64,000 nucleotides of DNA. Source: an uncultured Burkholderiales bacterium (GTDB taxonomy: Bacteria; Actinomycetota; Acidimicrobiia; IMCC26256; JACPCJ01). Below the pieces are notes generated by a model, which worked only from the letters and a program-made list of their open reading frames with translations, was not told the origin of the DNA and did no database searches. The stretch is taken from assembly GCA_964438505.1 (NCBI GenBank), contig CAYTKN010000013.1, positions 7,626 through 71,625 of the forward strand, in the 5' to 3' direction. A program made the translations under genes and the position numbers. This document shows, piece after piece, positions 22,344-64,000 of the stretch. Every line of letters starts with the position of its first letter. Position 1 is the stretch's first letter.

Positions 22344-22392
22344 CCGTGACCACGTCTCTCTGCTGTCGATAGTCAACGGAGACCGATGCGAT

Positions 22393-24049: not shown

Positions 24050-24095
24050 CGTTTCTCTACCGCCCCACCGCTACCCGGCTTCCCCAGCACTTGAC

Positions 24096-24991: not shown

Positions 24992-25003
24992 GCGATCAGC
25001 GTG

Positions 25004-25022: not shown

Positions 25023-25115
25023 TCAACGAGGGTTCGCTGTGTGCCGCTCCCCCATGGCGACTCCGGGGCATCGGACTGGAGTTCCGGTCCAGTGCGGTCC
25101 CGCGCGGTCCGGCGC

Positions 25116-27655: not shown

Positions 27656-27662
27656 GCGGTTC

Positions 27663-48846: not shown

Positions 48847-48851
48847 CCTTC

Positions 48852-50276
48852 TCACATCCTCCATCGAAATCGGAGCGCGTCCACACCGGCCCTCTCCTCG
48901 GGGCCGAGCTCCTCGAGCCCTGCCGTGCGGAAGCTTCGCAACGACGCCTCGTTCGAAACCTTGACGACGGCGTCCACGTGCTCCACAGCGAGCTCTTCGA
49001 TCACCCGAGACGAACCTGCCCGAACGATCGCCACACCGTACCCGTGACCGCGCCACTCGCCGGCCACCGAGATGCTGAGCTCCACTGCGCCCGGATCGTC
49101 GGTCGGTTCGAACCGGATCTGCCCGACGGGGTTCCCGAGATCGTCCTCCGCGATGTAGATGCGACAGTTCGGGTCGGAGAGGCGCCGACGAAACCACTCG
49201 ACGTGCGATTCCCAGGGAATCGGCTCCGGCGTGAAGGAGGCCGCGCGGGTCTCCGGGTCGTTGGCCCACCGCCACACGAGCTCCATGTCCTCCGGTGTGG
49301 CGCCACGGAGACGGATCCGCGAAGCCTGGAGCGCGCGGACGACGCGCGCTGCGCCTCGCCCGTCAACCAACGCCCGCGCGGCGTGGCTCATCTTCGAGCG
49401 CGCTGCGTCGTCGCCAAGCAGTCGACTCACCGCGTCGGCAACTGAGGTGGGATCCAGGTCCTCGTACCATCCGAGGTCGACCGCGGCGCCGGCATCCTGC
49501 ACCTGACGAGCCACTGGCTGCTGGTTGTCGGCGATCGACATCAGGACCGTCGGAACACCCAGGGCGCACAGCTCCCACACCGTGGTCCCGGCAGCGGACA
49601 GGACGACGTCGGCATCACGCATGCGCCTGACCACGTCGTGATCGGAGCCTGTGAGGGCATCGACGTGAACTCCCCGCCGCTCGAGCAGCTCGACGACGGC
49701 ATCACGGAGGTCCCGGGCCTCTGCGGGCGGGGCACCACCGAGCGTCACCAGCACCCGGGATGCGGGGCCCACGACCCCTGGTGAGCTGCGGTCACGGAAC
49801 TCGCTGCGCAGGAGGGCGTAGCGCGGCCCGAGCATCAGCCCGGCCCCGGGAGCGTCTTCCCGATATCGCTGCGCCCGCGCTTCTGCCCCGACGTTCTGGT
49901 CGATGATCCACGCAGCTTCGCACCGACCGACCCGGTTGTGGTCGTCGACCACCACGAGCCGCTCAGCGGGGAGTCTCTGCTGATGCTTGAGGGTGAAGCG
50001 ATAGTCGTCGACCACCACCCACTCGGCGTCCTCGACGACCGGCATCGACGCGAAGCGATCGTCATCCGTGTCGCGAGCAGGAAGTCTCCGGACCTCGACA
50101 CCCCGCTGCTTCGCCTCCCGCTCCAACCAGTCCGGCAGCGAGGCGACAACGAGCACACAATCGCCCCCGGTGGCGCACCATGTCTCACCCAGAGCGATGA
50201 CGCGCATCGCGTGACCCGCCCCGATCTCCGGACTGGCGTCAGCGCGCACCACGAGGAGGCCTTCCATTCGACTCAA
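48852..50276 (-). CDS. pseG: Fused PseG (UDP-sugar hydrolase) and PseH (GNAT N-acetyltransferase)
   Basis: The N-terminus LLVVRADASPEIGAGHAMRVIAL is PseG-like. The C-terminal 170 aa (LVWRWANDPETR...GHGYG) are GNAT-like. Confidence 0.8.
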   Translation of the reverse strand: MSRMEGLLVVRADASPEIGAGHAMRVIALGETWCATGGDCVLVVASLPDWLEREAKQRGVEVRRLPARDTDDDRFASMPVVEDAEWVVVDDYRFTLKHQQRLPAERLVVVDDHNRVGRCEAAWIIDQNVGAEARAQRYREDAPGAGLMLGPRYALLRSEFRDRSSPGVVGPASRVLVTLGGAPPAEARDLRDAVVELLERRGVHVDALTGSDHDVVRRMRDADVVLSAAGTTVWELCALGVPTVLMSIADNQQPVARQVQDAGAAVDLGWYEDLDPTSVADAVSRLLGDDAARSKMSHAARALVDGRGAARVVRALQASRIRLRGATPEDMELVWRWANDPETRAASFTPEPIPWESHVEWFRRRLSDPNCRIYIAEDDLGNPVGQIRFEPTDDPGAVELSISVAGEWRGHGYGVAIVRAGSSRVIEELAVEHVDAVVKVSNEASLRSFRTAGLEELGPEERAGVDALRFRWRM

Positions 50277-51016
50277 CCCTCCTCGAACGTTCTCTGACGC
50301 ACGTCAGCGTTGAGGGCGACCAGGTCTGGACGCGATCGGAGCAGTGCTACGACCTCTCGCCACGACGGTGGCCGATCGCCCAGCTCTGCGACGAGCGCGT
50401 CGAGCAGGGCGGCGTCCTCTTCCGTATCCATCGTGACTCTGAGGTCGTCGGCCGGAGGTTGGTACACCAACGATCCGAGACGAAACTCCGAAGGGAGACG
50501 GTAGAGCGTCGCTGTCACGTGCTCCCGCTCTCGCGACGACGCCAGAGCTGATGCGCGCCGCAAGGCGTCCGCCGAGACGACCTCGACACCAACTCCAGTG
50601 GGGAGGGAGGACGGATGAGTGGAGCTGAGGAGATCGAAGTCGCCGGAGCCGAACGCGCGGGCCGTTGCCACGAGGACCGCGGGGTCGACCAACGGGTTGT
50701 CGGCCGTCAACCGGACCACACCGTCTGCGGGATGTTGCGTCAGCACGCGAAGGAAGCGATCAAGGACATCGTCCTGGGAACCACGCACGCAGGAAACGCC
50801 CTCCGCGACACAAAACCCCTCGATCTGGTCGTCGGCCTCGTCCTCCGTCGTCGCCACGACCACGTCGGAGAGCGCAGCGCTCTCGCGTGCGGCGCGCACC
50901 ACCCATTCCACGACTGGCCGCTCGCCGAGCGAGCGAAGGACCTTGCCGGGGAAGCGACTGGACCCCATGCGGGCCTGGACGACCCCGAGGAGAGATGGGC
51001 CTTCGATCGGGCTCAT
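50273..51016 (-). CDS. pseF: Cytidylyltransferase, CMP-pseudaminic acid synthetase-like (PseF)
   Basis: GVVQARMGSSRFPGKVL and RLTADNPLVD are present in a 247 aa protein. Its stop overlaps the downstream pseG/H ATG start (ATGA). Confidence 0.8.
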   Translation of the reverse strand: MSPIEGPSLLGVVQARMGSSRFPGKVLRSLGERPVVEWVVRAARESAALSDVVVATTEDEADDQIEGFCVAEGVSCVRGSQDDVLDRFLRVLTQHPADGVVRLTADNPLVDPAVLVATARAFGSGDFDLLSSTHPSSLPTGVGVEVVSADALRRASALASSREREHVTATLYRLPSEFRLGSLVYQPPADDLRVTMDTEEDAALLDALVAELGDRPPSWREVVALLRSRPDLVALNADVRQRTFEEG

Positions 51017-51025
51017 CCACTCGGC

Positions 51026-51931
51026 TCAAGTCGGCCAGCGCCAGGGATCGAGAACCTCGTCCTCGAGCGTGGGCAGAGATTCGAGTAGGCCATCGACTGC
51101 GTCTTCGTCCAGCGTCGTCGCGTGCCCCCATCCCTCCAGGAGACGGCGAACCTGGTCGCGTGACTCACATCCGACGACCACGTTCACGGGCAGCGACTGG
51201 CGAGCAACCGCCAAACAGGCATCGTATCGATCGATCCCCCGGTCGGCACTCCAGCGATCGACTCGGTCGAGGACGGCACCGAGCGGCGCGAGGTGTGGCG
51301 GCAGACGCGTGGCGGGCAGGAGCAACGCTCCCTGGAGGAAGACACTCCGCAGGAAGACCTCCTTGCCCGCCTCCGCTGCAACGGTGAAGAAACCGCGGTC
51401 GGCGAGCCTACGGTCGGCAAGGCTACCCGGAACCTGCAGAACGTCGATCGTTGGATCGTCGAGGAACCGTTCGGCGTTCACGACGTCTCGCACCGAGACA
51501 CCGATCCTCCCGACGCGGCCACTGTCCTTCTCGGCTCGCAACTGGTTCCAGACCTCGCCTCCCGCCACCTCGCGATGCTCCTCGCGATGGAGCAACACCG
51601 CATCGAGGAAGTCCCGGCGCAGGGCGGATCGGCTCTCCGCCAAGCTCTTCCGAGCGCTCGCACCTGTGTGCGAACCCGCTGCTCGGCCAAGATCCGGCGA
51701 CAACTTCGTCACCACCCGCCAGCGATCGTCGTCGCCCAGGATCGATCCGATCCTCGCTTCACTCCCCGCGTAGCCGCGCGCGGTGTCGATCGTCGAGATT
51801 CCAACGGCGAACGCGTCGTCGAGGATGCCCAGCAGCTCTTCGTCGTCGGGGGGCCCAGTCGTGTTCGCGACTCCATAGCGGGCCGACCATTGCGCGCTCC
51901 CGAGCGCCAGCCGATGAGCCTCCGCTACCAA
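51026..51931 (-). CDS. Aldo/keto reductase family oxidoreductase
   Basis: LGSAQWSARYG...GISTIDTARGYAGSE is the AKR N-terminal signature. The protein is 301 aa. Confidence 0.75.
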   Translation of the reverse strand: MVAEAHRLALGSAQWSARYGVANTTGPPDDEELLGILDDAFAVGISTIDTARGYAGSEARIGSILGDDDRWRVVTKLSPDLGRAAGSHTGASARKSLAESRSALRRDFLDAVLLHREEHREVAGGEVWNQLRAEKDSGRVGRIGVSVRDVVNAERFLDDPTIDVLQVPGSLADRRLADRGFFTVAAEAGKEVFLRSVFLQGALLLPATRLPPHLAPLGAVLDRVDRWSADRGIDRYDACLAVARQSLPVNVVVGCESRDQVRRLLEGWGHATTLDEDAVDGLLESLPTLEDEVLDPWRWPT

Positions 51932-52707
51932 GCCGTCCAGCCGCCGTCGACGACGAGGTTGTGGCCGGTCACGTAACTGGCCGCGTCGCTGGCGAGGAAC
52001 ACGACCGCCCCTGCGACCTCTTCGGCCTCGCCGACCCGACCCAACGGAACACGGGCTGCCAACCGGTCTACGAACTCCCGCTCGCCTCTCACCTTGTCAC
52101 CGGGAAAGGGCCCCGGAGAGACGGCGTTGACCCGAATCCCATGAGGGGCGAGCGTGCAGGCCGCGATCCGAGTGAAATGGATGACCCCTCCCTTGGCGGC
52201 ACCGTAGGCAGGGTGGCTCTGGAACTGCTCGAACCCCTCGTAGACGGAGGGCACCGGTGACACCATGCCGTACATGGACGCGATGTTGACGATCGCGCCC
52301 CTCTCCCGTTCCGTCATCCGTCGCGCTGCGGCCTGCGTCGAAACCACCACATCGGCAAGACCAGCCTGCACGACGGCAGCAACGTCGTCGGCACTCGTTT
52401 CCATCAGCTCACCAGTCGGGCCGGAGTACGCGTTGTTCACGACGACATCGACCGGGCCCTCCGTTTCCTCGACCTCATCGAGGATCTGCTCGATGTCACT
52501 GCCGACGTCTCCCTCGATCACCGATACGCGCGCTTCAACGCCGGAAGTCTTCGCTCGGCGCTCGAGCGATCGCAGCGGCTCTTCGGATCGTCCGCAGCCC
52601 ACCACCTGTGCGCCTGCCTGGGCCAGGGCGATCACCATCGACTGGCCGAGATGCCCGCCACCCCCCGTCACCACAGCGGTCTGACCGTGCAGATCGAACA
52701 TCTTCAC
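51925..52707 (-). CDS. Short-chain dehydrogenase/reductase (FabG-like)
   Basis: TAVVTGGGGHLGQ, NNAY and YGAAKGG are present in a 260 aa protein. Confidence 0.85.
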   Translation of the reverse strand: MKMFDLHGQTAVVTGGGGHLGQSMVIALAQAGAQVVGCGRSEEPLRSLERRAKTSGVEARVSVIEGDVGSDIEQILDEVEETEGPVDVVVNNAYSGPTGELMETSADDVAAVVQAGLADVVVSTQAAARRMTERERGAIVNIASMYGMVSPVPSVYEGFEQFQSHPAYGAAKGGVIHFTRIAACTLAPHGIRVNAVSPGPFPGDKVRGEREFVDRLAARVPLGRVGEAEEVAGAVVFLASDAASYVTGHNLVVDGGWTAW

Positions 52708-54254
52708 CTCTCCGGATCCGAATCCGACTGGAGCGCATCCGACACCGCCGTCGCGATCCAGTCAACTGCCTCTGGGTGCGCGAGCAAGTCGTCGTATCTC
52801 GAGAACATCTCCTCGTTCGAGGGGTTCACGCACCCTGGAATGCCACATTCGCGCACGAGATCCACCAGAAAGTCACGCACCTGCTTCGCACCATGGTCCG
52901 CAGGTTTGAGGCTCTCCAAGATCGAATCCGCGCCCGAATACGAAGTGACTCCTGGGCATCCTTCGAACCACGGATGCCCGAAGATGACCGCACGCTGACC
53001 GAGGACGGCAGCTTCGAGCGCGATCGTTCCACCGACCGTCGCGACCAGGCTGCTGCCACGTACCAGCGTGATGGGATCGATCTCGTGCGACACCAGCCGC
53101 GTGTTCGGAAGGCCGTCGATGAACTCGTAGAACCCTGGGCTTCGCCCACGATGGCCTTTCATCGATTTCGAGAACTGCGACGGATGCTCACGGACCCAGA
53201 GCTCCATCGAATCCGGAAGCGCCGACCGCAACTCCAGCGCGACATCGTATTGGTTCCAGAAGCGCCCGCCCTCAGGATTCGTCGTCCGCTCCGGCTCATA
53301 GTGCAACGGAAACAACACGTACTCTCCAGATGCATGGGCACTTTCGACGCACCGTCTGTAGGCCGTTTCGAGTGCTCGCGCCGTCCTACGGCGATATGCC
53401 TGCTGTGACAACCAGCTCGCTACCAATGCTCCACTCGACCGCGCACGTTCCGTCATCGCCCACCGTTTCGGACCTTCCGGGGACTGTCCACCCCTGATCG
53501 CCCCAGGCTCACGCCATCCTCGACGCGCCAAGCCCGCACCCATCCTGATCTCCCGTTTGACACGGGACCCCACACCGCCCCCAACGTCAGCGACCGCCTG
53601 GCGCGTCATGTATCGGGGTTTCGCCGCCGCGTAATCACCTTGCTCGAATCCCTCAACGAGCTCGTCGATGTCCGATTCGAAGCGAGCATCTTCGAGCGCC
53701 GGATGGACAGCACCCCGGCACACCGCTCTCCCGTCGATCTCTCGTTTCGGGAAGAGCACCGGCAGGAAATTCGCACTCACGAAGTGGATCCTCGGCAATC
53801 CTGCAGATCTCATGAGCTCATAGATGATGAGCTGTGGCGGCGAGTGCGGCGCCTCCGCAGCTACGAGCACCTCCGGCATTCTTGCACCCAGAACTCCACT
53901 GAAGTACGAGTAGAGTTGGTAGAAGGTCGCCTCTCGCTCGAGGAGTCGCAGGTCACCCTGCAAATCCCGGCGGTCCATCATCTTCAACGCACGCAGCTTC
54001 AGACCCGCCAGGTCTGCTTCCCCGAGCTGGAACGGGCTTCGCGCCGGAGCGGCTGACGATCCGTCAGAGACGCTCACGCCCTCGTTCGAGGCGGCGAAGC
54101 CATACACCGCGCAGTCCGAAAAGCGTTCGCGCGCCCAATCCTGATGTCGGTCATCGCCAAGCCAGATCGTCGGCACCCAGCCGAACCGGTGCTCGAGCAC
54201 AGCCGGCAGCTCTCGCCACAGCTCTCGACCCGTCGGAAAATAGACGTATCTCAT
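52704..54254 (-). CDS. Capsule-biosynthesis (KpsS/KpsC/LpsZ-like) family protein; candidate nonulosonic-acid transferase
   Basis: YVLFPLHYEPERTTNPEGG, LWVREHPSQ and ATVGGTIALEAAVLGQRAVIFGHPWF follow the Capsule_synth-like pattern. This is the first gene of the low-GC block. Confidence 0.55.
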   Translation of the reverse strand: MRYVYFPTGRELWRELPAVLEHRFGWVPTIWLGDDRHQDWARERFSDCAVYGFAASNEGVSVSDGSSAAPARSPFQLGEADLAGLKLRALKMMDRRDLQGDLRLLEREATFYQLYSYFSGVLGARMPEVLVAAEAPHSPPQLIIYELMRSAGLPRIHFVSANFLPVLFPKREIDGRAVCRGAVHPALEDARFESDIDELVEGFEQGDYAAAKPRYMTRQAVADVGGGVGSRVKREIRMGAGLARRGWREPGAIRGGQSPEGPKRWAMTERARSSGALVASWLSQQAYRRRTARALETAYRRCVESAHASGEYVLFPLHYEPERTTNPEGGRFWNQYDVALELRSALPDSMELWVREHPSQFSKSMKGHRGRSPGFYEFIDGLPNTRLVSHEIDPITLVRGSSLVATVGGTIALEAAVLGQRAVIFGHPWFEGCPGVTSYSGADSILESLKPADHGAKQVRDFLVDLVRECGIPGCVNPSNEEMFSRYDDLLAHPEAVDWIATAVSDALQSDSDPER

Positions 54255-54257
54255 CGT

Positions 54258-56123
54258 CTATCCATTTTGCGAAAGCGCTCGAAACCCCGCGCTCTCAGCT
54301 CTCAACTGCTCGAACGTCCCGACTCCCTGGACGCGGCCTCCTTCGAGATAGACGATCTTGTCGCAATCTCTCACCGTCGACAATCGGTGAGCCACCAACA
54401 GTATCGTGTGCTCCCCACGCAGCCTTTCGATCGAACCGATCAGGATCGACTCCGTTACCGAGTCAAGTGCCGAGGTCCCCTCGTCAAAGATCAACACCTC
54501 CGGATGACGGTACAACGCTCGAGCGATCGCAACTCGCTGCCGCTGTCCACCAGACACCCGAACGCCCCGCTCCCCCACCTGCGTCTCCAAGCCGGCTGGC
54601 AACGAAGCGACGAACTCATCAAGTTGCGCGAGGCGCACCGCCTCCCGCACCGCCAGCTCATCGATCGCGTCGTCTGGAACACCAAGCGCGATGTTCCGAC
54701 GGAGTGTGTCATCGATGAGGAAAACCATCTGCGGCACGACTCCAAGTTTCTCGTACCAACGAGGAAGCCTCGTGTGAATGTCGACGCCGTCTACCGTCAC
54801 CTCGCCGTCGGTCGGGGGCAGAATCCCCGTGATGAGGTCCGTGAGAGTCGTCTTGCCGCCCCCAGTGGGGCCGCAAATTCCAACAACTTCTCCCCGTCGG
54901 ATCTCGAGATCGACGTCGGCCACCGCAGGATGGTCCGTTTCGTCATATACGTAGCCAACCCCTGCCAATCGTATTGCCTGCTGAAAACCGAGCGGCTCGA
55001 TATCTCGCTCCAAGCCCTCGACTCGCTCCACCAGCAGCAGATCTTCGTAGACCTGCTCGACAGCCGGCGCTGAGAAACGGATGTTGTTCAGACCTGTCAC
55101 GACCTTCTGAAGCGATGGCATCACGCGAAGACCGACATACGCGAAGAGACCGAGCTTCGAGAGCAGTTCGTCATTACCCACTTCTGTGATCACGCTGAAG
55201 CCGAACAGAAGTAGGATGAACCCCACCAACGCCGTCTCGATCACCAACCGCGGCATCTCAGAGACGACGCCTCGGAAGTAGAGCGATCGAGCAAGTCGAC
55301 GCCGATCCGCATGATACCGGTCACCGAAGTACTTCTCGACGCCCAGTACTTTGACGTCGCGTATTCCATGCAGCGATTGTTGCAAGGTGCCAAGCGTTTG
55401 CTTGCGCATCTCTTGCGCTTCTGCTCCCAACCGTCGTAACCGCGGCTGAACGACCTTGAGGAGCAAGAGTGCGGCGCCACCGACCACTACGATGGCCAGT
55501 GCCGTACCTACCGGAGCGATTCCCAACATGAGTGCCAAGAGACCCAGGACGATGAGTGCCTCTGCCAGAACGTGAATTGTGGGAAGGAAGCTCTGCCCGG
55601 CGAGCATCTCGAGGGTCTGGTGAGCATTCCGTACCAGCTCGGCTGAGCTGCGTCTCAGATGGAATGCATACGGAAGTCTGAGATAGCCCTCCGCGAGGCG
55701 CGAGGATATTCGAGCGGCGGCGTTGTGAGCCATCCGGTGCTTGATATACGCCAGTCCGATTTGCACGATGACTCGAGCGAGGAAGAATGCCCCGAGCACC
55801 GCAGCGACCGTCAAGAGAAACGTCGTCTCATCGACGCCGGTGAAGCGCTCCCGAAGATTCCCGAGAAGCGGTACGTCCAACTCACTTTCACGGTCGGTAA
55901 TGAGCGCCAGCAACAGGAAGACCAGGAGCGCGCCAAGCATCTCGAATCCCGTCGCGACGGCAGCACCGAGAATCACAGCCACCCATCGGCCAGGCTTGTC
56001 ACGACCCACGAGATGGAAGATCTTCCGAAAAGTCTCGACCACAGTTCCCCCGCTGGCTGCGCGCAGCGACTCGTTCGTCAGGAGACGACCACCATACCGG
56101 TGGGTCGGCGACCCGGTTGACAC
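54258..56123 (-). CDS. Type-I ABC exporter, fused TMD-NBD (MsbA/PglK-like)
   Basis: Six N-terminal TM segments precede GPTGGGKTTL, LSGGQRQRVAIARAL and ILIFDEGTSALD. Confidence 0.85.
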   Translation of the reverse strand: MSTGSPTHRYGGRLLTNESLRAASGGTVVETFRKIFHLVGRDKPGRWVAVILGAAVATGFEMLGALLVFLLLALITDRESELDVPLLGNLRERFTGVDETTFLLTVAAVLGAFFLARVIVQIGLAYIKHRMAHNAAARISSRLAEGYLRLPYAFHLRRSSAELVRNAHQTLEMLAGQSFLPTIHVLAEALIVLGLLALMLGIAPVGTALAIVVVGGAALLLLKVVQPRLRRLGAEAQEMRKQTLGTLQQSLHGIRDVKVLGVEKYFGDRYHADRRRLARSLYFRGVVSEMPRLVIETALVGFILLLFGFSVITEVGNDELLSKLGLFAYVGLRVMPSLQKVVTGLNNIRFSAPAVEQVYEDLLLVERVEGLERDIEPLGFQQAIRLAGVGYVYDETDHPAVADVDLEIRRGEVVGICGPTGGGKTTLTDLITGILPPTDGEVTVDGVDIHTRLPRWYEKLGVVPQMVFLIDDTLRRNIALGVPDDAIDELAVREAVRLAQLDEFVASLPAGLETQVGERGVRVSGGQRQRVAIARALYRHPEVLIFDEGTSALDSVTESILIGSIERLRGEHTILLVAHRLSTVRDCDKIVYLEGGRVQGVGTFEQLRAESAGFRALSQNG

Positions 56124-56142
56124 GGGGCGACTCCGCCATATG

Positions 56143-57678
56143 TCATCTCGACCGTTGTCCGTCCCTACGAGCGTCCACCAGTGCCAGCAGGATCTCGAGC
56201 ACTCCCTCCGAGCTGACGCTCCTCGCGGGCTTCCTCGCGCGGCCTTCGTTCATCAGTTCACCGAGCGCTTCGCGAGCCTGCTCCGAATCACGCGCAGCCC
56301 GAACCCAGCCCGAGCGCGTGTACTCCTGGTAACGTCTCGCTGCATTGGTTCCGTACACCACCGACGGTACACCGAACTCGGCTGCCTCCATCACCACGGT
56401 CGAGCTCAGCGTCACGTGCACGTCAACGTGTGGCAAGATCCCATACAAGGGAAGGTCCGCCACCCCACCGATCTCCGCGTTCGCAAGCTTCCCAAACCCT
56501 TCTCGCACGCGATCGATCTCCACCCGTTCCATCATCGGGTGGTTCCGCACGAGCCACCGCCAGTCACCGGTCGCGGCGATCAGATGCCGGAACTGCCGAA
56601 TGACCTCGCTGTCACACATTCCGCGCTGGAGTGTGAGCAAAACTATTTTTCCATCCCAACCTCGGAGACCTTCCCGAACCGCTTCCTCGTACTGTCCGGC
56701 CAACGAGGGTGAGCGCCGCCACTTCTCGAGCCACTGGTTTCCAGCCACCCACGCTTCATGCCTGCCTCCGACACGACCCGCCCAGCGCCGGATCGTCGCG
56801 GCCTCCTGTTCACTCCACACCAGGTAGTCCGATGGCAAGAGCGCATACCCCGAATCGGGAACCTCGCTCCAACGCGCGTACACAGGGTGGAGATCTCCCT
56901 GTACGCCATGTTGGATATCCGCCGAGCGCATGCCGAGTTCGGCGCACGCCAGATTGAAGGCGAGCTCCGCGATTCCGTAACCCACGACCAAGCCAAGGCT
57001 GGCCTCCGCCTGATCGCACTCCCTTTTGAAGAACTCAGCAACCGAGCGCACCAACCTCGCTTGCCGCTGGATCTGTTTGTAGTCCAAGATCCGGAGTGGA
57101 ATTCCGGTTTTTGCGACTTCACGCACCACCTGCTCGTGGCTCGGAAGCGACGGCTCGATGCTGCGGCTCCACGGAGCGCGACTGCGCAGGCGAGCACGAT
57201 CGAGAACAGGTTGAATTCGAATCGACGGTCGGCTTCTCGGCTCCGGACACGCGTCACCCGATTCCAACTGCTTCCACGAGCTACCCACAGATTCAAGCGT
57301 CTCAAGAAATGGCTCGATCACGCGGTCATACCACACGCCTTCTAGCTCGACCCGATATTTGCTGTTGCTCAAGGCGACCACGTCTGCGGGTCGGCCTCGC
57401 GTGCGCCCCCCGCCGCTCCGAGCCAAAGATCGAGAGATTGCTCGGATGCGCGCGGGCAACTGGGCACGAGAAGCTGACCCTACCCTCCCTTGATTCTTCT
57501 TCGCTTCCATCCAGAGGCGAGACCTGATCAAGGGCCAGATCAGAAAGCCGCCGGCCTGCCACTCTTGAACTCTGTATCTGGACTCGAGATCGTTGACGAA
57601 CTCGAGGAATCTTTCGGCATCGAATGATGCCCCAGCGCCAAACACTGACGTGCCCTCCGACAGGCTTGAGTCATCCAT
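56143..57678 (-). CDS. Hypothetical GT-B-like protein (distant KpsS/CDP-glycerol-transferase-like C-terminal half)
   Basis: 511 aa counted from ATG 57678. The C-terminus (KIVLLTLQ...VRNHP...VHVTLSSTVVMEAAEFGVPSVVYG) follows a GT-B pattern. The family assignment is uncertain. Confidence 0.45.
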   Translation of the reverse strand: MDDSSLSEGTSVFGAGASFDAERFLEFVNDLESRYRVQEWQAGGFLIWPLIRSRLWMEAKKNQGRVGSASRAQLPARIRAISRSLARSGGGRTRGRPADVVALSNSKYRVELEGVWYDRVIEPFLETLESVGSSWKQLESGDACPEPRSRPSIRIQPVLDRARLRSRAPWSRSIEPSLPSHEQVVREVAKTGIPLRILDYKQIQRQARLVRSVAEFFKRECDQAEASLGLVVGYGIAELAFNLACAELGMRSADIQHGVQGDLHPVYARWSEVPDSGYALLPSDYLVWSEQEAATIRRWAGRVGGRHEAWVAGNQWLEKWRRSPSLAGQYEEAVREGLRGWDGKIVLLTLQRGMCDSEVIRQFRHLIAATGDWRWLVRNHPMMERVEIDRVREGFGKLANAEIGGVADLPLYGILPHVDVHVTLSSTVVMEAAEFGVPSVVYGTNAARRYQEYTRSGWVRAARDSEQAREALGELMNEGRARKPARSVSSEGVLEILLALVDARRDGQRSR

Positions 57679-58771
57679 CGGACGACGCCAGCGTTTTGTA
57701 CTCCTCCAGCAGACGCCGTCCCCACACATCCGTCGAGAACTGGTGCTCGATTGTCGAACGCGCCGCCCGCGAGAGCTGTTGCCACGCACTCTCGTCGAAG
57801 TTCACGGCGCGCTTCACGCCGTCGAGCCATCCTTCGCGATCGAGGCTGGTGAGGACGCCGTTGACGCCGTCCTGCACGATCTGATCGGATGCGCCATCAA
57901 AGGTGACGATCGGCACCACGCCATAAGACATCGCCTCGAGCAGACCGAAGTTTGCGAAGACCACCTCTGAAGGCAGAAGGAAAAAGCGGGCCCGCTCATA
58001 GTAGGGGCGTGGGTCTGTGTAGTCGCGGCAGTGAACACCTGGAATTCGTGACAGTTTCACGCGCACTCGATCTTCGAGACGAGGATCAGTCCCCGTCGAG
58101 ACGCCGCCTACGGAAAACCCCAGGATCTCGCACCGCAGCGAGCGCTCCTTCGAGAGATCTCGGAGGAGGTCAACCAACCACTCTGGATGGTACTCGGGGA
58201 TGAGTCTGTTGGCCCAAAGTAGGTCGATATCGCGACCCTGGAGAGGGCCCGGCTCCTGATCGGGCACGGGTACAGCGTTAGGGAGAAGAAAGGTCTTCTG
58301 CCCGAGCCCCCACTCATCGAACGCGGACTGCATGTACGGCGCTCGACACCAGATGCGGTCGGCAAGCTGATAACACAGACGCATCGAGAACCTTGTCGAC
58401 CAGTCGTAGGTTCGCTTCTGATATTGCAGCAAGGCGCCGCGCTCGACGACGAGGATCGGGATCTTGAACCAGCGCGACATGAGCGCGTAGACCGCAGCGA
58501 ACCGTCCGGCTGGATAGATCTCGACATGGTTGAGCGTCCTTCGGTTCAAACGCAGGAAGCGCCAAACCTGCCGAACCCTTGCCCAAGGTGAAGATTCCAA
58601 CTGGTGAATCGCAGCACTCGGGTCGGAGACAACCGAGTAGGACTGCCGATGGTTTGTCAGGACGTACACGCTGAACCCGCGTTCGGCCAGCCACCGCGTC
58701 TGCGTCAACGTCTTGTGGCGGACGCTCTCGATTCCGAGGATTGCGATGGAGCGACGGTCCAGCACTGTCAT
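57671..58771 (-). CDS. GT4-family glycosyltransferase
   Basis: Track ORF of 366 aa. FLLPSEVVFANFGLLEAMSYGVVPIV is the E-x7-E-like region. Confidence 0.7.
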   Translation of the reverse strand: MTVLDRRSIAILGIESVRHKTLTQTRWLAERGFSVYVLTNHRQSYSVVSDPSAAIHQLESSPWARVRQVWRFLRLNRRTLNHVEIYPAGRFAAVYALMSRWFKIPILVVERGALLQYQKRTYDWSTRFSMRLCYQLADRIWCRAPYMQSAFDEWGLGQKTFLLPNAVPVPDQEPGPLQGRDIDLLWANRLIPEYHPEWLVDLLRDLSKERSLRCEILGFSVGGVSTGTDPRLEDRVRVKLSRIPGVHCRDYTDPRPYYERARFFLLPSEVVFANFGLLEAMSYGVVPIVTFDGASDQIVQDGVNGVLTSLDREGWLDGVKRAVNFDESAWQQLSRAARSTIEHQFSTDVWGRRLLEEYKTLASSDG

Positions 58772-58934
58772 CCTCTACGGCGCGGGATCACCGTGCATCA
58801 GAAACACCAAGGCTTGATGGTCTTGGTCTACTCGGCGCACCAGCGATCTCGACCCAACGTCTATGCGTGAACAGGTTGGACTCTCGGATAGAATCGTGAC
58901 GGTCCATGGCCTTGCTCCTTGAGGGAAGCTACGA

Positions 58935-60119
58935 GTGCAACCCGGCCGACCGCTGAAGATCACCCACGTCATCACCGACCTCAAGGCCGGAGGGGCGGAA
59001 CTGATGCTCGCGCGGTTGCTCGAGCACTGGGATCGTCAACGGTTCACAGGTACGGTCATCTCGCTCGGCAGTGCCGGCCACGTCGGTGAGCGCATCGCCG
59101 GGTCGGGCATCCGGACCATCGGGCTCGGGTTGTCGAGAGCCTTTCCCAACCCGGTTGGGCTTGCTCGACTCGTGCGCCTGTTGCGACAGGAACAACCAGA
59201 CGTGGTCCAGACCTGGATGTACCATGCCGACGTCGTCGGAGGGATCGCCGCGCGCCTCGCAGGCGTCCCCGCCGTGGCATGGAACATCCGACACAGCGAC
59301 CTCGATCCACACGCGATTCGGCGACGCACCATCTGGATCGCGCGTGCCGCCGCCCGTCTCTCCACACGAATCCCCGACATCATCGTCTGCTGCTCGCGTC
59401 GAGCGATGACGACGCACGCTGGCCTCGGCTACGACGCAGCACGCATGCGCTACATCCCGAACGGGTTCGACACACGAGCTTTTCAGCCTGATCCGGGCGC
59501 GCGGGAGGAGGTGCGAAAAGAGCTGAACATCCACCCGAGCGCCCCCATCGTCGGCCTTGTTGGCCGCTTCGCACCGATGAAGGATCACGCGACCTTCTTC
59601 GCTGCAGCGGGGTCGCTCCAAAGGGAGCTCCCGGACACCCACTTCGTCCTCTGCGGAGGCGAGATCACAGCCGACAACGCCCGTCTCGTGGAGCTCGCAC
59701 GCGGTTCTGGGGTCATCGATCAGTGCCGCTTCCTGGGGGTGCGAGAGGACATGTCGCGTGTCACCAACGCCTTTGACGTCGCGGTCTCGGCCTCGTCGTC
59801 AGGCGAGGGGTTCTCGAACGTGCTCGGTGAGGCAATGGCCTCAGGGGTCCCTTGTGTGACAACTGACGTAGGGGACTCGGCCTCGATCGTTGCCAACACC
59901 GGGATCGTCGTACCTCCTGGCGATCCCACTGCCCTGGCCACGGGCATGGCTGACATCTTGAGTGCTGAGCCACCGCGCCGACACTCGCTCGGCCAAGCCG
60001 CTCGAGCACGGATCATCGACCAATTCGGCCTCGAGGCGACGACCGGTCGCTACGAAGCATTGTACGCGGCGCTCGGTACCCGGGCATCCGACCACTCCGC
60101 CGACGCTGAGCCCTCCTGA
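58935..60119 (+). CDS. GT4-family glycosyltransferase
   Basis: KITHVITDLKAGGAELML and SSSGEGFSNVLGEAMASGVPCV are present in a 394 aa protein with a GTG start. Confidence 0.85.
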   Translation: MQPGRPLKITHVITDLKAGGAELMLARLLEHWDRQRFTGTVISLGSAGHVGERIAGSGIRTIGLGLSRAFPNPVGLARLVRLLRQEQPDVVQTWMYHADVVGGIAARLAGVPAVAWNIRHSDLDPHAIRRRTIWIARAAARLSTRIPDIIVCCSRRAMTTHAGLGYDAARMRYIPNGFDTRAFQPDPGAREEVRKELNIHPSAPIVGLVGRFAPMKDHATFFAAAGSLQRELPDTHFVLCGGEITADNARLVELARGSGVIDQCRFLGVREDMSRVTNAFDVAVSASSSGEGFSNVLGEAMASGVPCVTTDVGDSASIVANTGIVVPPGDPTALATGMADILSAEPPRRHSLGQAARARIIDQFGLEATTGRYEALYAALGTRASDHSADAEPS

Positions 60120-61540
60120 GCGTCCTCACGGGCCGACCCGGGAATCGATCTCGACCGCCTGGCCTGATACCAACGCCACACCGTCCTCGCGCCGAGCGCA
60201 GCCAGCAACGCGACCACGTAGACGAACTCACCTCGGTGCCGGAACGCGGTTCCGAAGTTGCCCTCAGCCAGCGCGAACCCGAGGAGCAGACCTGCACCAG
60301 CGATCACCGGGAACGCCAAGACCGCGATACGACGACGCAACGCCTCGAAGAGACCCACTCCGGCAAGCGCGAGCACCGGATACCAGATGATGGTCTCCAG
60401 CTGGGCGACACCGACATATCTCCCCTCGAACTCCGTCCACGGCAATGGCTCGAGCAACATGACGCGCAATCCGGTGGGGATGTACCCCAAGTCCGAAAGC
60501 GAGAGCAACGGAGTGTCGTCGGTCGGATCCCCTTCGAGATCAGAACCGCTTCTCGATGCGGAGGCCCCTGCCGAGACGGAGTTATCTGCCGAGACGGAGT
60601 CACCTGCTGTGGCATCGGCGGCGCCGCCCCCCTCACCATCCTCGAGCTCGGCTGACTCGTAGATCGCGGTCGCTCCACGAGCTTCAGCGGCCCGAGACTC
60701 GGAAGGAATCTCACGCGGAGGAACATCGCGTCCGAAGAATCCGGCGCCTGTCAGCATCGGAATCAGAGCTGCGATCGCGATCGCCCCAGCGATCCGGAAC
60801 CAGTAACCGGGACGTCGGGCCACGAACATGGCGATTACCAGTGCCCACATCACCACGACCATGGAGGGATCCCGCAGGTTCCCGAGATACACACCCGTCA
60901 GCGCAACCCCCAACCCCAGCGTCAGCAGCCGGAGGCCACGGGCACCGAACGACAACGCCACGAGGAGAGCCATGACGGAGGTACCAGCCCACACCGGAGC
61001 ATCCCTGAGCGCTACCGACGACCAGAGGATCTGTGAGGGCAGGAGCGCCACCAACGTGCCGGCGAGCACCGCCCAGCCCCGCTCCAGGAACCGCAGACCG
61101 ATGGCACACACCGCGGTCGCCGCGACGGCACCAGCCAACGCAGCGAAGAGCTGTCCGAAGACCGCATGAGTCCCGAACACCCTGAACAGCCACGTGAGTG
61201 GCACGACGAACGCTGCGAAGCGGGAATAGCGGGAGTGTTCTCGCACCTCCCACTCCCCGGTGTCGCCCGTCGCTTTCTCGGCAGCGAGACGAATGTACGT
61301 TGCCGCATCCGGCGCGACCTCGTGCATCAAACCGGCGAGCGCGATCAACGCGGCGATCGCGACCCGAACGAAGAGCGCAACCAGGAACACCGACAAGAGC
61401 GGGTGGTGGTTCACCAATCCACCGAGTCGACCAGTCTTCGAGAACCAGCCCCCTGGGAGCCGTGTTCTCCGACTGGCCTTGCTCACACGACCTCCCGTCT
61501 GCGATGAGGCGGGCCGCGCATCGGCATCGAACAACGTCAT
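60050..61540 (-). CDS. Polytopic membrane protein (GT-C-like / polymerase- or ligase-like)
   Basis: Track ORF of 496 aa with more than 10 TM segments. It has a first-loop motif APDAATYIRLA and a large Ser/Asp/Gly-rich loop. Confidence 0.55.
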   Translation of the reverse strand: MTLFDADARPASSQTGGRVSKASRRTRLPGGWFSKTGRLGGLVNHHPLLSVFLVALFVRVAIAALIALAGLMHEVAPDAATYIRLAAEKATGDTGEWEVREHSRYSRFAAFVVPLTWLFRVFGTHAVFGQLFAALAGAVAATAVCAIGLRFLERGWAVLAGTLVALLPSQILWSSVALRDAPVWAGTSVMALLVALSFGARGLRLLTLGLGVALTGVYLGNLRDPSMVVVMWALVIAMFVARRPGYWFRIAGAIAIAALIPMLTGAGFFGRDVPPREIPSESRAAEARGATAIYESAELEDGEGGGAADATAGDSVSADNSVSAGASASRSGSDLEGDPTDDTPLLSLSDLGYIPTGLRVMLLEPLPWTEFEGRYVGVAQLETIIWYPVLALAGVGLFEALRRRIAVLAFPVIAGAGLLLGFALAEGNFGTAFRHRGEFVYVVALLAALGARTVWRWYQARRSRSIPGSAREDAQEGSASAEWSDARVPSAAYNAS

Positions 61541-62655
61541 CGGTCGACTCTCTGGGCAAAGAGCGCTCCGACCTCTGCCTGTCGGTTCCGCTCAGGCACC
61601 TCGGGCCGCGAGGTCTCGGCGGCAACGCCCTCGACCCGGTAGACGGGCACCCGAGCGAGCAACACGGCGAGGAACAACGCCGCTCCCACCACGAGACCGG
61701 CCAGCATGTAGGCCGACGCCTGGTCGATCCGGCTGACGACGAGACCGAGGACGCCGAGGCCCACCGCGGCGCCGTAGAGCAGCGAGACCGCCGCGCGTAC
61801 GGGGATGCCGATGAACACGAGTCGGTGGCTCGGGTGATCGAGGCCACCCTTGAAGGGGCTTCGCCCCACCAACAGCCGGCAGACCGTGACGAGGGTCGTG
61901 TCGAAGATGGCGACGCCGAGGACGAGGATCGGCACGAGGAACGTCACCTCGGTGGGGCCGTCGAAGCGCAGTTTGACGCCGAGGTAGGCGAGCACGAAAC
62001 CCAGGAAGAGACTGCCGGAGTCGCCCATGTAGATCCGCGCCGGATGGAAGTTGTGGCGGAGGAACCCCACGGCGCATCCCGCGAGCGCCACGGCCAGAGC
62101 AGCGACGAGGAACTGCCCGTTCACCCCGGCGATCACGAAGAACCAACCGGCGGCGATCGCCGCCACCCCTGCCGAGAGGCCGTCCATGTTGTCGAGGAGG
62201 TTGAAGGCGTTCGTGATGCCCACCACCCAGAGGACGGTGACGATCGCGTTCGGGAGATCTGCCGAGAACATGTGCACACCGACGCCGAGCTGCCAGACCG
62301 CGACGCCCGCGCCGACCTCGACGGCGAGCCGCACGAGCGGTCGCAGGCTCTTCAGGTCGTCGAACAAGCCCACGATGCTGAGCCCGACCGCGACGAGCAT
62401 CACGAGCTGGATCTCCCGAAGGCCCGAGTTCGGAGGTCGCAGCGTCGCCGCGAGGACCACCACGGCGGAGAACGCGAGGACGATCGCGAGCCCACCGAGG
62501 TAGGGGACGGGTGAGCCGTGGGACTTGTCCTCGCCCGGCTGGTCGAGAATCTGCACGCGCACGGCGAGGCGCAGGGCGAGCGGCGTCAGGACGAGCGACA
62601 GGAAGGCCGTCCCAGCGAAGATCGCACCGTAGTGCCAGCCGCTGAGGTCACTCAT
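61537..62655 (-). CDS. wecA: Polyprenyl-phosphate HexNAc-1-phosphate transferase (WecA/MraY family)
   Basis: GLFDDLKSL, NAFNLLDNMDGLS and MGDSGSLFLGF are present. ATG 62655 is the likely start; the track start is 62694. Confidence 0.8.
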   Translation of the reverse strand: MSDLSGWHYGAIFAGTAFLSLVLTPLALRLAVRVQILDQPGEDKSHGSPVPYLGGLAIVLAFSAVVVLAATLRPPNSGLREIQLVMLVAVGLSIVGLFDDLKSLRPLVRLAVEVGAGVAVWQLGVGVHMFSADLPNAIVTVLWVVGITNAFNLLDNMDGLSAGVAAIAAGWFFVIAGVNGQFLVAALAVALAGCAVGFLRHNFHPARIYMGDSGSLFLGFVLAYLGVKLRFDGPTEVTFLVPILVLGVAIFDTTLVTVCRLLVGRSPFKGGLDHPSHRLVFIGIPVRAAVSLLYGAAVGLGVLGLVVSRIDQASAYMLAGLVVGAALFLAVLLARVPVYRVEGVAAETSRPEVPERNRQAEVGALFAQRVDR

Positions 62656-62922: not shown

Positions 62923-64000
62923 TCACAGGCGCTCCCGCTGGGAGGCCGGCAGACCCGCCAGCGCGTCGACCGGATCGAACACGGGCACTCCGGCCGCAGC
63001 GATCTCGTCGACCGGCCAGTCCGGGTGCTTGACGAGAGCCACGACGAGGTCGAACGAGCCCCACTCCACGGCGTCGAGGGGGAGCACCTTGCGCTCCCCC
63101 GAGGTGAGGGTGATCTGCGACACGTGGGTGTCGACGAAGTCGACGACCGCGCCCGCGCTCTCGAGCAGCTCCATCACGTGGACGGCACGGGAGTTGCGGG
63201 TGTCGCTCACACCGGCCTTGAACGAAGCGCCGAGGCAGAGCACCCGGGAGCCCTTGAGCACCTGTCCCCGGTCGTTCATGAACGCCAGGATGCGGCTCAC
63301 CACATACGGCGCCATGCGGAGGTTCGTGTCGGCTGCCAGCTCGATGAACTTGGTCTGGAAGTCGAACTCGCGGGCCTTCCACGAGAGGTAGTAGGGATCG
63401 ACGGGGATGCAGTGCCCACCCGGCCCGATGCCCGGATAGAAGGCTTCGAAACCGAACGGCTTGGTGGCCGCGGCGTCGATGACCTCCCAGATGTCGATGC
63501 CCATCTCGTGGGCGAGGATCGCCAGCTCGTTCACCAGAGCGATGTTGACCGCCCGGTAGGTGTTCTCGAGCAGCTTGCACATCTCGGCCGCCTCGGGGGT
63601 GGAGACGACCTCGACGAGCCCCGGCCCGGCCATCACCGCCTCGAGGATCGCCTCGGCGTGCGCGGCGCCCTCGTCGCTCAGGCCACCCACCACCTTCGGG
63701 GTGTTGTGCACCGTCCAGGTGGTGTTGCCGGGGTCGACGCGCTCCGGTGAGAAGGCGAGGTGGAAGTCCTCGCCCGCACGCAGGCCGCTCTCCTCGAGGA
63801 TCGGCTGCACCACCTCCACCGTGGTGCCCGGATAGGTGGTCGACTGGAGGATGACCAGCATGCCCGGGCGCAGCACTCCGGCGACCGTACGGCACGCCTC
63901 GTGCACGAACGAGAGGTCGGGCACCTTCGCCGGGTCGAACGGCGTGGGCACGCAGATGAACACCACGTCGGTGGCACCGATCTCCTCGGCGTCTGCGGTC
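62923..64000 (-). CDS. Nucleotide-sugar dehydrogenase (UDP-glucose/GDP-mannose dehydrogenase family); N-terminus lies outside the window
   Basis: VFICVPTP, NTYRAVNIALVNE and the catalytic-Cys motif GPGGHCIPVDP are present. The frame stays open to position 64000. Confidence 0.85.
   Translation of the reverse strand, partial: TADAEEIGATDVVFICVPTPFDPAKVPDLSFVHEACRTVAGVLRPGMLVILQSTTYPGTTVEVVQPILEESGLRAGEDFHLAFSPERVDPGNTTWTVHNTPKVVGGLSDEGAAHAEAILEAVMAGPGLVEVVSTPEAAEMCKLLENTYRAVNIALVNELAILAHEMGIDIWEVIDAAATKPFGFEAFYPGIGPGGHCIPVDPYYLSWKAREFDFQTKFIELAADTNLRMAPYVVSRILAFMNDRGQVLKGSRVLCLGASFKAGVSDTRNSRAVHVMELLESAGAVVDFVDTHVSQITLTSGERKVLPLDAVEWGSFDLVVALVKHPDWPVDEIAAAGVPVFDPVDALAGLPASQRERL

Follow-up and report, generated by a model that had tools for sequence, protein, structure and literature searches.

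How is a glycan containing pseudaminic acid (Pse) assembled, and how is it carried across the membrane, at a locus from which a Wzx-type flippase seems absent? This question is raised by the region at 45.7-64 kb of a 64,000-nt stretch of contig CAYTKN010000013.1 (assembly GCA_964438505.1), here called the window, in which Pfam and NCBIfam scans of 45-64 kb found no Wzx- or Wzy-type protein. The reading we favor, with moderate confidence, is that this region represents a composite, partly imported locus for a lipid-linked Pse-containing glycan in a host of 72% guanine + cytosine (GC), which would probably be an actinobacterium. Judged from sequence, the region centers on a cassette that is met again in distant phyla and consists of a fused ATP-binding cassette (ABC) exporter, an adjacent KpsS1-like glycosyltransferase (GT) of the GT-B type, and pse genes accompanied by an aldo/keto reductase (AKR) and a short-chain dehydrogenase/reductase (SDR). 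The predicted cassette of the window adds a second GT-B protein, from another family linked to nonulosonic acids (NulOs), and a glycosyltransferase of family GT4.

A complete pse pathway was identified in the window, with PseB and PseI scoring above the NCBIfam equivalog cut-offs and PseC and PseG slightly under theirs. Nine genes on the minus strand, from GT4a to pseI as the last gene, form one operon with junctions of -8 to +19 bp (Table 1). A preliminary description of the window had proposed a self-contained, horizontally acquired low-GC glycan block with candidate Pse transferases.

The 516-aa KpsS1-like protein

Two KpsS/Capsule_synth-like or GT-B proteins had been described in the block. 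The 516-aa protein proved to be Capsule_synth-like, but the 511-aa protein belongs to another GT-B family. The 516-aa protein matched Capsule_synth (PF05159) over residues 278-445 with 28.0 bits (cut-off 20, E 2e-6), and a KpsS1-type protein of Acinetobacter baumannii matched the same part of the model with 53.5 bits. It has no hydrophobic segments, indicating a soluble protein. The only sequence matches in the PDB, with either the single sequence or a profile of its family (alignment A1, 62 sequences), were KpsC (GT107) and WbbB (GT99), and these were confined to the C-terminal His-motif domain (E ~2e-5). An AlphaFold2 model (predicted local distance difference test, pLDDT, 87; predicted template modeling score 0.88) displayed the two-Rossmann GT-B fold. 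Foldseek returned KpsC, WbbB and UDP-GlcNAc 2-epimerases at template modeling (TM) scores of 0.2-0.44, KpsC and WbbB not being ranked above the epimerases. Within the 62 sequences E356-H357 is invariant and P358 is at least 90% conserved; this region aligns with VKVHPD of KpsC and VKDHKS of the KpsS1-type protein. Two further invariant residues, E320 and E322 of the LHYEPE segment, precede the His motif by about 35 residues.

The KpsS1-type reference is a 480-aa PF05159 gene (locus L165, 11152-12594) from a chromosome-sized A. baumannii record in the plasmid collection PLSDB, and its label rests on locus position and Pfam match, not on an accession. The gene order there is wza, gna, psaA-F, wzx, the PF05159 gene, wzy (EpsG), gtr genes, ugd, gpi, gne and pgm, which is a KL2-type K locus with the PF05159 gene in the kpsS1 position. 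This collection files as plasmids two chromosome-sized A. baumannii records, NZ_CP077849.1 and NZ_CP104448.1 (3.66 and 4.09 Mb), which contain the capsule K locus. The 516-aa protein aligned with the reference at 29% identity over 136 aa in BLASTP (E 7e-17), and hhalign matched the reference to A1 over 295 columns and both domains with a probability of 99.3% (E 4e-20). By these comparisons the 516-aa protein is KpsS1-like. According to PMC12887879, which cites Walklett 2024, KpsS1 itself has been characterized by experiment as a retaining Pse5Ac7Ac transferase, and family GT118 was founded on it.

The gene neighborhood points in the same direction. In the window the 516-aa gene shares an operon with pseF, pseG-H and pseI. 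Among 57 genome loci with a family member and at least 12 kb of flank, 45 encoded a NeuB-type synthase within 10 kb, the measure of NulO linkage used here, which is in agreement with the report that KpsS1/Gtr59-type PF05159 genes lie beside NulO modules in many bacteria (PMC4487303). From homology and gene linkage we infer that the 516-aa protein is the best candidate for a CMP-Pse-dependent Pse transferase (CMP, cytidine monophosphate). The earlier suggestion of a KpsS-like Pse transferase at 52704-54254 was borne out by the Pfam score, the KpsC/WbbB matches, the profile comparison with the KpsS1-type protein and the NulO-linked loci.

A Coriobacteriia metagenome-assembled genome (MAG) carried two tandem 516-family paralogs (L044, 9074-12264), with about 27% identity each to the 516-aa protein. 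They adjoin pse genes and an ABC exporter, and their pairing is reminiscent of KpsS/KpsC.

The ABC exporter and its cassettes

The neighboring exporter gene encodes a single chain with transmembrane and nucleotide-binding domains, as the preliminary description had recognized. Hydropathy indicated about six helices in the N-terminal ABC_membrane part, and the ATPase motifs are intact: Walker A GPTGGGKT, signature VSGGQ, Walker B VLIFDE and H-loop AHR. Its scores on the equivalog models were all below the cut-offs (HepA 299 of 725 bits, MsbA 273 of 602, PglK 257 of 1000).

Full-length exporter homologs were detected in 13 of the 57 loci of the 516 family and were directly adjacent to the family gene in six. 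Homologs adjoining 516- or 511-family genes were found in Marinobacter (L013, L084), Azoarcus (L016), Hydrogenophaga (L042), Halopseudomonas (L060), an unassigned contig (L077) whose exporter is 45% identical to that of the window, and a Mariluticola plasmid (L166). On the marine Marinobacter-type contig L084 the order was wzi-wza-wzb-wzc-ABC-KpsS1-like-pseBCFG-formyltransferase-pseI, so that the exporter occupies the position held in the A. baumannii locus by wzx, which is followed there by the kpsS1-type gene. The 109-kb plasmid NZ_CP090961.1 of Mariluticola halotolerans carries the cassette at 52974-69470, with co-directional genes for a tviB-type dehydrogenase, the ABC exporter (38% identical to that of the window), pseB, pseC, pseF, pseG, a NeuB-family synthase, a PF05159 protein and a GT4. 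The PF05159 protein, annotated as hypothetical, matched the 516 family with a probability of 99.8%. Position and co-inheritance make the exporter a candidate flippase for a lipid-linked Pse glycan, in place of Wzx.

The reductase pair recurs with the pse genes as well, in several phyla. AKR homologs accompany pse genes in L013, L026, L060 and L073, and SDR homologs adjoin them in L013, L026, L060 and L063. This suggests that the pair carries out an uncharacterized step in making or modifying CMP-Pse, and for the AKR a role in Pse modification would fit this linkage. In Marinobacter nitratireducens (L013, 13673-15298) a cytidylyltransferase and an AKR are fused into one protein of 541 aa (CTP_transf_3 and Aldo_ket_red domains).

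The initiator and the polytopic GT-C-like protein

The WecA-like initiator and the nucleotide-sugar dehydrogenase that had been described at the end of the block were both found, the dehydrogenase being cut by the window end. The initiator scored 111.6 bits on PF00953 (cut-off 27), has about 10 hydrophobic segments, and in the plasmid collection matched best the TagO-like enzymes of Gram-positives. It scored 103 bits on the WecA equivalog TIGR02380 (cut-off 326), from which no substrate specificity was assigned.

The 496-aa protein encoded next to it had been called GT-C- or ligase-like, and the first part of this name fits better than the second. It is polytopic, with about 10-12 helices in the hydropathy profile, a basic cytoplasmic N-terminus and a long acidic loop. 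D78 and Y82 (Asp-x3-Tyr) are at least 90% conserved and, in the topology derived from hydropathy, open the first outer loop right after the first transmembrane helix; the motif GNxGTAFRHRGE near the end of the protein is invariant. PMT_2 was matched by 7 of 56 family members (best E 2e-9) and STT3 by one (0.009), and hhalign aligned the family with the PMT_2-like protein encoded elsewhere in the window (probability 79%, E 2e-5). The best assignment on these matches is a divergent GT-C, a candidate for an extracytoplasmic transfer or polymerization step. Wzy_C (PF04932) was not among the best 25 of the 39 families matched by the 56 members (E<=1), the protein contains no WWD or WxDxG motif, and a PDB profile search gave no match; its identification as a Wzy_C ligase or an STT3 oligosaccharyltransferase thus found no support. 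The 75 detectable homologs were all metagenomic or from Actinomycetota MAGs (best 56% identical), and the relatives sit in actinobacterial GT4/GT2/Wzx clusters lacking NulO genes. Two more polytopic proteins in the upstream glycan cluster, at 26156-27880 (at least 8 hydrophobic segments) and 32727-34283 (at least 7), had no Pfam match. They are unrelated to the 496-aa family and were rejected as paralogs of it.

The initiator and the GT-C-like protein bear on the main rival to our reading, a teichoic-acid-style route in which the polymer is completed in the cytoplasm before its export. In this classical ABC-transporter-dependent wall polymer, of teichoic or teichulosonic-like type, the GT-B pair would act as primer and polymerase like KpsS and KpsC and build a long Pse-rich chain in the cytoplasm on a lipid primed by the WecA/TagO-like enzyme. 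Once finished, the polymer would be exported by the ABC exporter and joined to peptidoglycan by an LCP enzyme encoded elsewhere, and the GT-C-like protein would only decorate it or would belong to another pathway. The likeness of the initiator to TagO and the absence of NulO linkage among the GT-C relatives agree with such a route, and so do the two NulO-type GT-B genes in one operon, the tandem paralogs of the Coriobacteriia MAG and the homology of the 516-aa protein to the polymerizing KpsC/KpsS system. Teichulosonic acids containing Pse or 2-keto-3-deoxy-nononic acid (Kdn) have been described in actinomycete walls. The exporter argues the other way. Known polymer exporters of the wall-polymer route are two-component ABC-2 systems (Wzm/Wzt, TagGH), one of which is already present upstream in the window, and exporters of the fused MsbA/PglK type have been described for lipid-linked oligosaccharides. 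Moreover, the cassette of Gram-negative relatives is part of Wza-Wzb-Wzc loci, which handle flipped repeat units, and no LCP gene was found in the scanned parts of the window. Taken as a whole, with its LCP and GT-C components, we regard the wall-polymer route as rather improbable.

The 511-aa protein and its family

The second soluble GT-B-like protein gave neither a PF05159 match nor any other match above threshold in Pfam or NCBIfam. Its description as KpsS-like was not upheld, as hhalign aligned the KpsS1-type protein with its family (alignment A4) at a probability of only 1.6%. Sub-threshold Capsule_synth matches occurred in 5 of 34 family members, and the alignments of the 516 and 511 families (A1 and A2) matched each other with a probability of 59%, confined to the HP-motif domain. 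Q256-H257-G258 is invariant in A2 and A4, and R378-x-H380-P381 and E431 are invariant in A2 and at least 90% conserved in A4. The family is large by an exhaustive profile search, in which 2,505 cluster representatives were recovered at E<=1e-30 and, with the limit relaxed to E<=1e-3, 8,238; an apparent rarity was rejected as an artefact of a word-indexed search that had returned 22 matches.

The NCBIfam model for BFO_1060/GtfS (NF046086) was matched weakly by 21 of the 34 members (best E 1e-8), all under the 200-bit cut-off, with 16.7 bits for the window protein. The BFO_1060 ortholog GtfS of Tannerella forsythia is needed for the addition of a Pse or legionaminic acid (Leg) derivative, as found by knockout, complementation and glycan mass spectrometry, and carries the HP motif, which together with D/E-D/E-G makes up the bacterial sialyltransferase motifs (PMC5420450). 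A NeuB-type synthase was encoded nearby in 19 of 36 metagenomic 511-family loci with at least 8 kb of flank, and linkage to NulO genes was seen in L077 and L079 as well. In L077, which holds the closest homolog, the gene lies 29 nt from the ABC exporter and beside a cytidylyltransferase fused to a GCN5-related N-acetyltransferase (GNAT); in L079 the homolog lies within a legionaminic-type cluster and adjoins Wzx. With GtfS distantly similar, it is plausible that the 511-aa protein is a second NulO transferase.

The fold invites another interpretation. The nearest solved structures to the AlphaFold2 model (pLDDT 85) are UDP-GlcNAc 2-epimerases (Foldseek E 6e-11, TM 0.66), whose two-Rossmann scaffold is common to GT-B enzymes. 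A sugar-nucleotide enzyme of epimerase or hydrolase type is thus conceivable, as is a CDP-alcohol transferase like TagB/TagF, and either would leave a single Pse transferase in the locus. Weak Epimerase_2 matches in 6 of the 34 members and a NeuC match in one are in line with this, as is the original likening of T. forsythia GtfS to TagB (PMC5420450). The Pse pathway is already complete, however, and the Leg cluster of L079 has a separate Epimerase_2 gene. The GtfS model was weakly matched by 21 of the 34 members, and DUF6716, a putative glycosyltransferase family, by 11. The conserved HP motif and the Ser/Glu residues appear to fit the bacterial sialyltransferase pattern (PMC5420450), and the family genes lie beside flippase genes, either ABC or Wzx. 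A non-transferase role is for these reasons the least likely of the alternatives considered here.

A broader proposal, which we put forward tentatively and consider doubtful in its full extent, is that the 511 family, which no Pfam or NCBIfam model names and which numbers at least 2,500 clusters at 50% identity, forms a third lineage of bacterial NulO transferases beside KpsS1/GT118 and GtfS. It holds in addition that the recurring pair of the fused exporter and a transferase of either the KpsS1-like or the 511 family would constitute a Wzx-independent means of flipping lipid-linked NulO glycans, spread horizontally across phyla, including on plasmids, and grafted here onto an actinobacterial WecA/GT-C wall-glycan operon.

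Composition and origin of the locus

The window as a whole has 72% GC. In 1-kb windows GC was 0.59-0.64 at 52-59 kb and 0.65-0.69 at 59-64 kb, against ~0.72 elsewhere. In 500-bp windows the mean was 0.609 (maximum 0.634) at 52.7-59 kb and 0.722 (standard deviation 0.031, minimum 0.644) at 1-45 kb, without any overlap between the two sets of values (Mann-Whitney U = 0, p = 2e-8). The hand counts of the preliminary description (35/60, 36/60 and 47/60) were reproduced exactly, and both the sliding-window plot and the codon positions revealed a clear shift.

The drop in composition is real, but its borders differ from the 52.7-61.5 kb first given. GC at third codon positions (GC3) was calculated per gene, with 14 background genes as the host reference (0.919+-0.022). 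It was host-like in pseB (0.91), pseC (0.86), the WecA-like gene (0.89) and the dehydrogenase (0.93), and 0.68-0.80 in all genes from pseI (47785) through the polytopic gene (61540). The lowest values (0.68-0.73) occurred at 52.7-58.8 kb, and the polytopic GT-C gene and GT4b were intermediate. By this measure the anomaly spans 47.8-61.5 kb, with the left border about 5 kb further out, so that the atypical segment also takes in pseI, pseG-H, pseF, the AKR and the SDR, and leaves the WecA-like and dehydrogenase genes outside.

Taxonomic contrast was assessed within a single database, the plasmid collection. A native MacB-type permease of the window matched Actinomycetota in 25 of 25 records, whereas the 516-aa and 511-aa proteins matched Proteobacteria only. 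The best matches of the ABC exporter were plasmids of marine Alphaproteobacteria, and those of GT4b were Caballeronia and Pseudomonas (Burkholderiales and Pseudomonas, 40-43%). GC in the contigs of the nearest relatives was 58-67%, similar to the block. The best-hit taxonomy is thus proteobacterial for these four proteins and actinobacterial for the permease.

The same composition might be that of an old resident block without recent import, typical of the centers of glycan loci, with the gap in homologs reflecting a poorly sampled lineage. The tested window proteins, including PseB with its host-like GC, were singletons at 90% identity, and the genome was not in the scan of GTDB representative genomes, so distant best matches would be expected for any gene. 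The only other copy found was a Logan contig from SRR9010616. No integrase or transposase was found in the Pfam scans, the flanking repeats were short chance ones only, Rfam, tRNA, promoter and terminator scans gave nothing useful at the block edges, and the GT-C family is actinobacterial. Against an old resident, GC3 of the block genes lies 0.12-0.24 under a tight host distribution and GC1 is lower too; relaxed selection would presumably not lower GC3 in a genome driven so high. The contrast between the permease and the four proteobacterial-type proteins was obtained in the same database, collinear cassettes exist in Marinobacter and on the Mariluticola plasmid, and the GC of the nearest relatives' contigs matches that of the block. 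We therefore judge long residence without import to be unlikely.

Foreign origin of the block center is supported by GC3, by the collinear proteobacterial cassettes, including one on a plasmid, and by the taxonomic contrast. The claim of a self-contained acquired block holds for its foreign composition and proteobacterial matches but not for its extent, since the WecA-like gene, the dehydrogenase, pseB and pseC are host-like, the GT-C family is actinobacterial and no mobility genes were found. The locus looks composite, with native flanks (pseB/C on one side, dehydrogenase and WecA on the other) around an imported or exchanged center. Low-GC variable centers are common in O-antigen and capsule loci, so an imported center is unsurprising, and horizontal transfer is ordinary among surface-glycan loci.

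Proposed pathway

In the pathway we propose, PseB, PseC, PseH, PseG, PseI and PseF, whose gene identities are clear, would produce CMP-Pse. The host-type WecA/TagO-like enzyme would prime polyprenyl phosphate with N-acetylhexosamine (HexNAc)-1-phosphate, and GT4a and GT4b would extend the chain, possibly with a HexNAc-uronic acid from the dehydrogenase. By homology and gene linkage, the soluble KpsS1-like enzyme, and probably the 511-aa enzyme too, would add Pse at the cytoplasmic face. Movement of the lipid-linked product across the membrane would then fall to the ABC exporter, as it falls to Wzx beside kpsS1 in Acinetobacter; the position and co-inheritance of the exporter suggest this. Outside the membrane the GT-C-like protein could act as polymerase, ligase or decorating enzyme. 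The product would most likely be a cell-wall glycopolymer or a protein-linked glycan. The earlier view that the parts fit a scheme of initiation, elongation, flipping and transfer separate from the upstream Wzm/Wzt system is sustained, with the correction that only two GT4 genes (57671-58771 and 58935-60119) were found instead of three; a third was rejected since none occurs among the open reading frames (ORFs) of at least 100 aa at 52.6-62.7 kb. Flagellin glycosylation of the Maf type was likewise rejected, as Pfam scans of 37-64 kb contained no Maf domain.

Several observations weigh against this pathway or parts of it. Donor, acceptor, linkage and product are all deduced from genes. The identity between the 516-aa and KpsS1-type proteins is low (29% over the 136 residues aligned by BLASTP and ~19% across the full alignment). 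The proposed catalytic base of KpsS1 is Glu132 of a YE motif (PMC12887879), and hhalign places Y131-E132 of the KpsS1-type protein on A132-A133 of the window protein, one residue before the near-invariant E134. The exporter is far under the PglK and MsbA equivalog cut-offs, and 13 of 57 is a minor share of the 516-family loci. The 511 family lies more often beside Leg- or neuraminic acid (Neu)-like than PseI-like synthases, and its epimerase-like fold would allow a role other than transfer. The GT-C-like family, found outside NulO clusters, may serve another glycan. Neither an LCP ligase nor a glycoprotein target was found in the scanned parts of the window. As regards import, integrase, tRNA and flanking repeats are absent at the block borders, and the collections contained no close relative of the host; among GTDB representative genomes no identical locus turned up, and the best match was 36% identical.

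Gene content and neighboring features

The features of the locus are listed in Table 1. The pseC ORF as listed overlaps pseB, and the true start is probably near 46.70 kb.

Table 1. Genes of the Pse locus and the upstream Wzm/Wzt system, with positions in the window, strand and the matches on which each assignment is based
Feature	Position	Strand	Matches and remarks
Wzm/Wzt	~39.65-41.3 kb		Pfam scans
pseB, UDP-GlcNAc 4,6-dehydratase (inverting)	45713..46708	+	TIGR03589 469 bits (cut-off 408); Polysacc_synt_2 E 1e-96; GC3 0.91
pseC, aminotransferase	46588..47775 (ORF as listed)	+	TIGR03588 415 bits (cut-off 423.5); DegT_DnrJ_EryC1 E 1e-95; GC3 0.86
pseI, pseudaminic acid synthase	47785..48852	-	TIGR03586 447 bits (cut-off 340); NeuB and SAF domains; GC3 0.77
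pseG-pseH fusion, UDP-sugar hydrolase and GNAT N-acetyltransferase	48852..50276	-	TIGR03590 (PseG) 142 bits (cut-off 153.6), residues 8-211; Glyco_tran_28_C and Acetyltransf_3 (residues 320-454)
pseF-type CMP-nonulosonate synthetase	50273..51016	-	CTP_transf_3 E 2e-30; 4-bp overlap with pseG-H
AKR	51026..51931	-	Aldo_ket_red E 4e-25
SDR, paired with the AKR	51925..52707	-	adh_short_C2 E 3e-49
KpsS1-like soluble GT-B protein, 516 aa	52704..54254	-	PF05159 28 bits (cut-off 20)
Fused ABC exporter	54258..56123	-	ABC_membrane and ABC_tran domains; MsbA/PglK/HepA architecture
Second soluble GT-B-like protein, 511 aa	56143..57678	-	Nothing above threshold in Pfam/NCBIfam
GT4a glycosyltransferase, first gene of the nine-gene operon	57671..58771	-	Glyco_trans_1_4 E 5e-11; Glyco_trans_4_4 E 2e-9; GC3 0.73; 8-bp overlap with the 511-aa gene
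GT4b glycosyltransferase, transcribed away from GT4a and towards the GT-C gene	58935..60119	+	Glycos_transf_1 E 3e-28; GC3 0.76
Polytopic GT-C-like membrane protein, 496 aa	60050..61540	-	No Pfam match of its own
WecA/TagO-like polyprenyl-phosphate HexNAc-1-phosphate transferase	61537..62655	-	PF00953 (Glycos_transf_4) E 5e-32; GC3 0.89; 4-bp overlap with the GT-C gene
Nucleotide-sugar 6-dehydrogenase, WecC/TviB-like	62923..64000 (N-terminus past the window end)	-	UDPG_MGDP_dh domains; TIGR03026 315 bits (cut-off 190); GC3 0.93

Directly before pseB lies a glucose/sorbosone dehydrogenase (GSDH) gene at ~44453-45415 on the minus strand. The segment 41307-46603 displays long overlapping ORFs typical of high-GC DNA, including a minus-strand ORF of 1,411 aa that has a GT2 domain only from ~44.3 kb downward. 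Upstream of the glycan region, an arylsulfotransferase (ASST) gene (11831-13999) and a HipA-type toxin kinase gene (14385-15647) were identified. An ORF for a UbiA-family prenyltransferase (7594-9030, minus strand) overlaps the start of a 772-aa PMT_2-like GT-C ORF (8300-10618, plus strand), so that the start of one or the other must be set too far out; the pair is reminiscent of the polyprenyl-phospho-sugar donor/GT-C systems of actinobacterial walls. A second, milder low-GC patch (0.655-0.69) at 22000-25000 contains a small ORF resembling sigma-70 region 4 or a helix-turn-helix protein (23498-24070). A 97-nt tRNA-Ser(GGA) called by ARAGORN at 25040-25136 is probably false, as Rfam gave no tRNA at the gathering threshold.

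Significance

Knowledge of the enzymes that attach NulOs has been called scarce (PMC5420450). Those attaching Pse or Leg are poorly known, with experimental support for a few lineages, namely Maf, GtfS and KpsS1/GT118. The window joins in one tight operon a distant relative of KpsS1, a member of a large uncharacterized NulO-linked GT-B family and a complete CMP-Pse pathway. Both GT-B candidates are directly testable, because they share an operon with this pathway and the donor can be made enzymatically. The pairing with the exporter suggests how NulO glycans may cross the membrane where Wzx is absent. To our knowledge the Pse wall polymers of actinomycetes are known chemically and not genetically; if this is so, the locus is a candidate for their genetic basis.

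Comparison with known systems

The soluble GT-B proteins may be compared with transferases of known function. The 516-aa protein shares with the retaining beta-Kdo (3-deoxy-D-manno-octulosonate) transferases KpsS/KpsC of Escherichia coli (GT107) and WbbB of Raoultella (GT99) the PF05159 match, a His motif in the C-terminal Rossmann domain and a GT-B-derived fold. Its likely donor, however, would be the nine-carbon Pse instead of Kdo, and the LHYEPE segment before the His motif, a possible counterpart of the site of the catalytic Asp of KpsC/WbbB, has Glu and not Asp. The 511-aa protein resembles the T. forsythia GtfS proteins (Tanf_01245, TFUB4_00887 and BFO_1060), which transfer Pse or Leg derivatives to a protein O-glycan, in being a soluble GT-B-type protein beside pse or leg genes and in having an HP motif, which may correspond to the one that GtfS carries in its conserved CMP-binding domain at the C-terminus (PMC5420450). 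It differs in that its other conserved motif is the invariant Q-H-G and not D/E-D/E-G, and in that its family is about 60 residues longer with a conserved N-terminal region of its own. All model matches between the two are far under the cut-offs.

The general scheme recalls the Pgl system of Campylobacter jejuni (PglC, PglA/H/J, PglK, PglB), with initiation on undecaprenyl phosphate, elongation by GT4 enzymes, flipping by a fused ABC protein and handover to a polytopic GT-C-type protein. The exporters have the same architecture and a similar length. However, that of the window scored 257 bits where PglK requires 1000, the GT-C-like protein lacks WWDxG and is not STT3-like, the initiator is of the WecA type instead of the PglC type, and the glycan of the window would carry Pse.

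The closest likeness in gene linkage is to the KL2-type locus of A. baumannii (psaA-F, wzx, kpsS1, wzy). In both, Pse genes adjoin a PF05159 GT-B gene, the two proteins being homologous by hhalign (99.3%), a translocase gene directly adjoins the transferase gene, and an initiating phosphotransferase starts the glycan, or in the window is predicted to start it, on a polyprenyl carrier. The translocase differs, being a fused ABC exporter in the window and Wzx in KL2, and the transferases are only 29% identical over the catalytic region, with PF05159 scores of 28 and 53.5 bits. The window has an extra GT-B protein of an unrelated family. It has a GT-C-like protein in place of the EpsG/Wzy polymerase and the Wza-Wzb-Wzc proteins, whose absence would be due to the Gram-positive-type envelope of the host. 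Set beside these three systems and the Kdo transferases, the locus belongs to a familiar kind of system whose parts are newly combined here.

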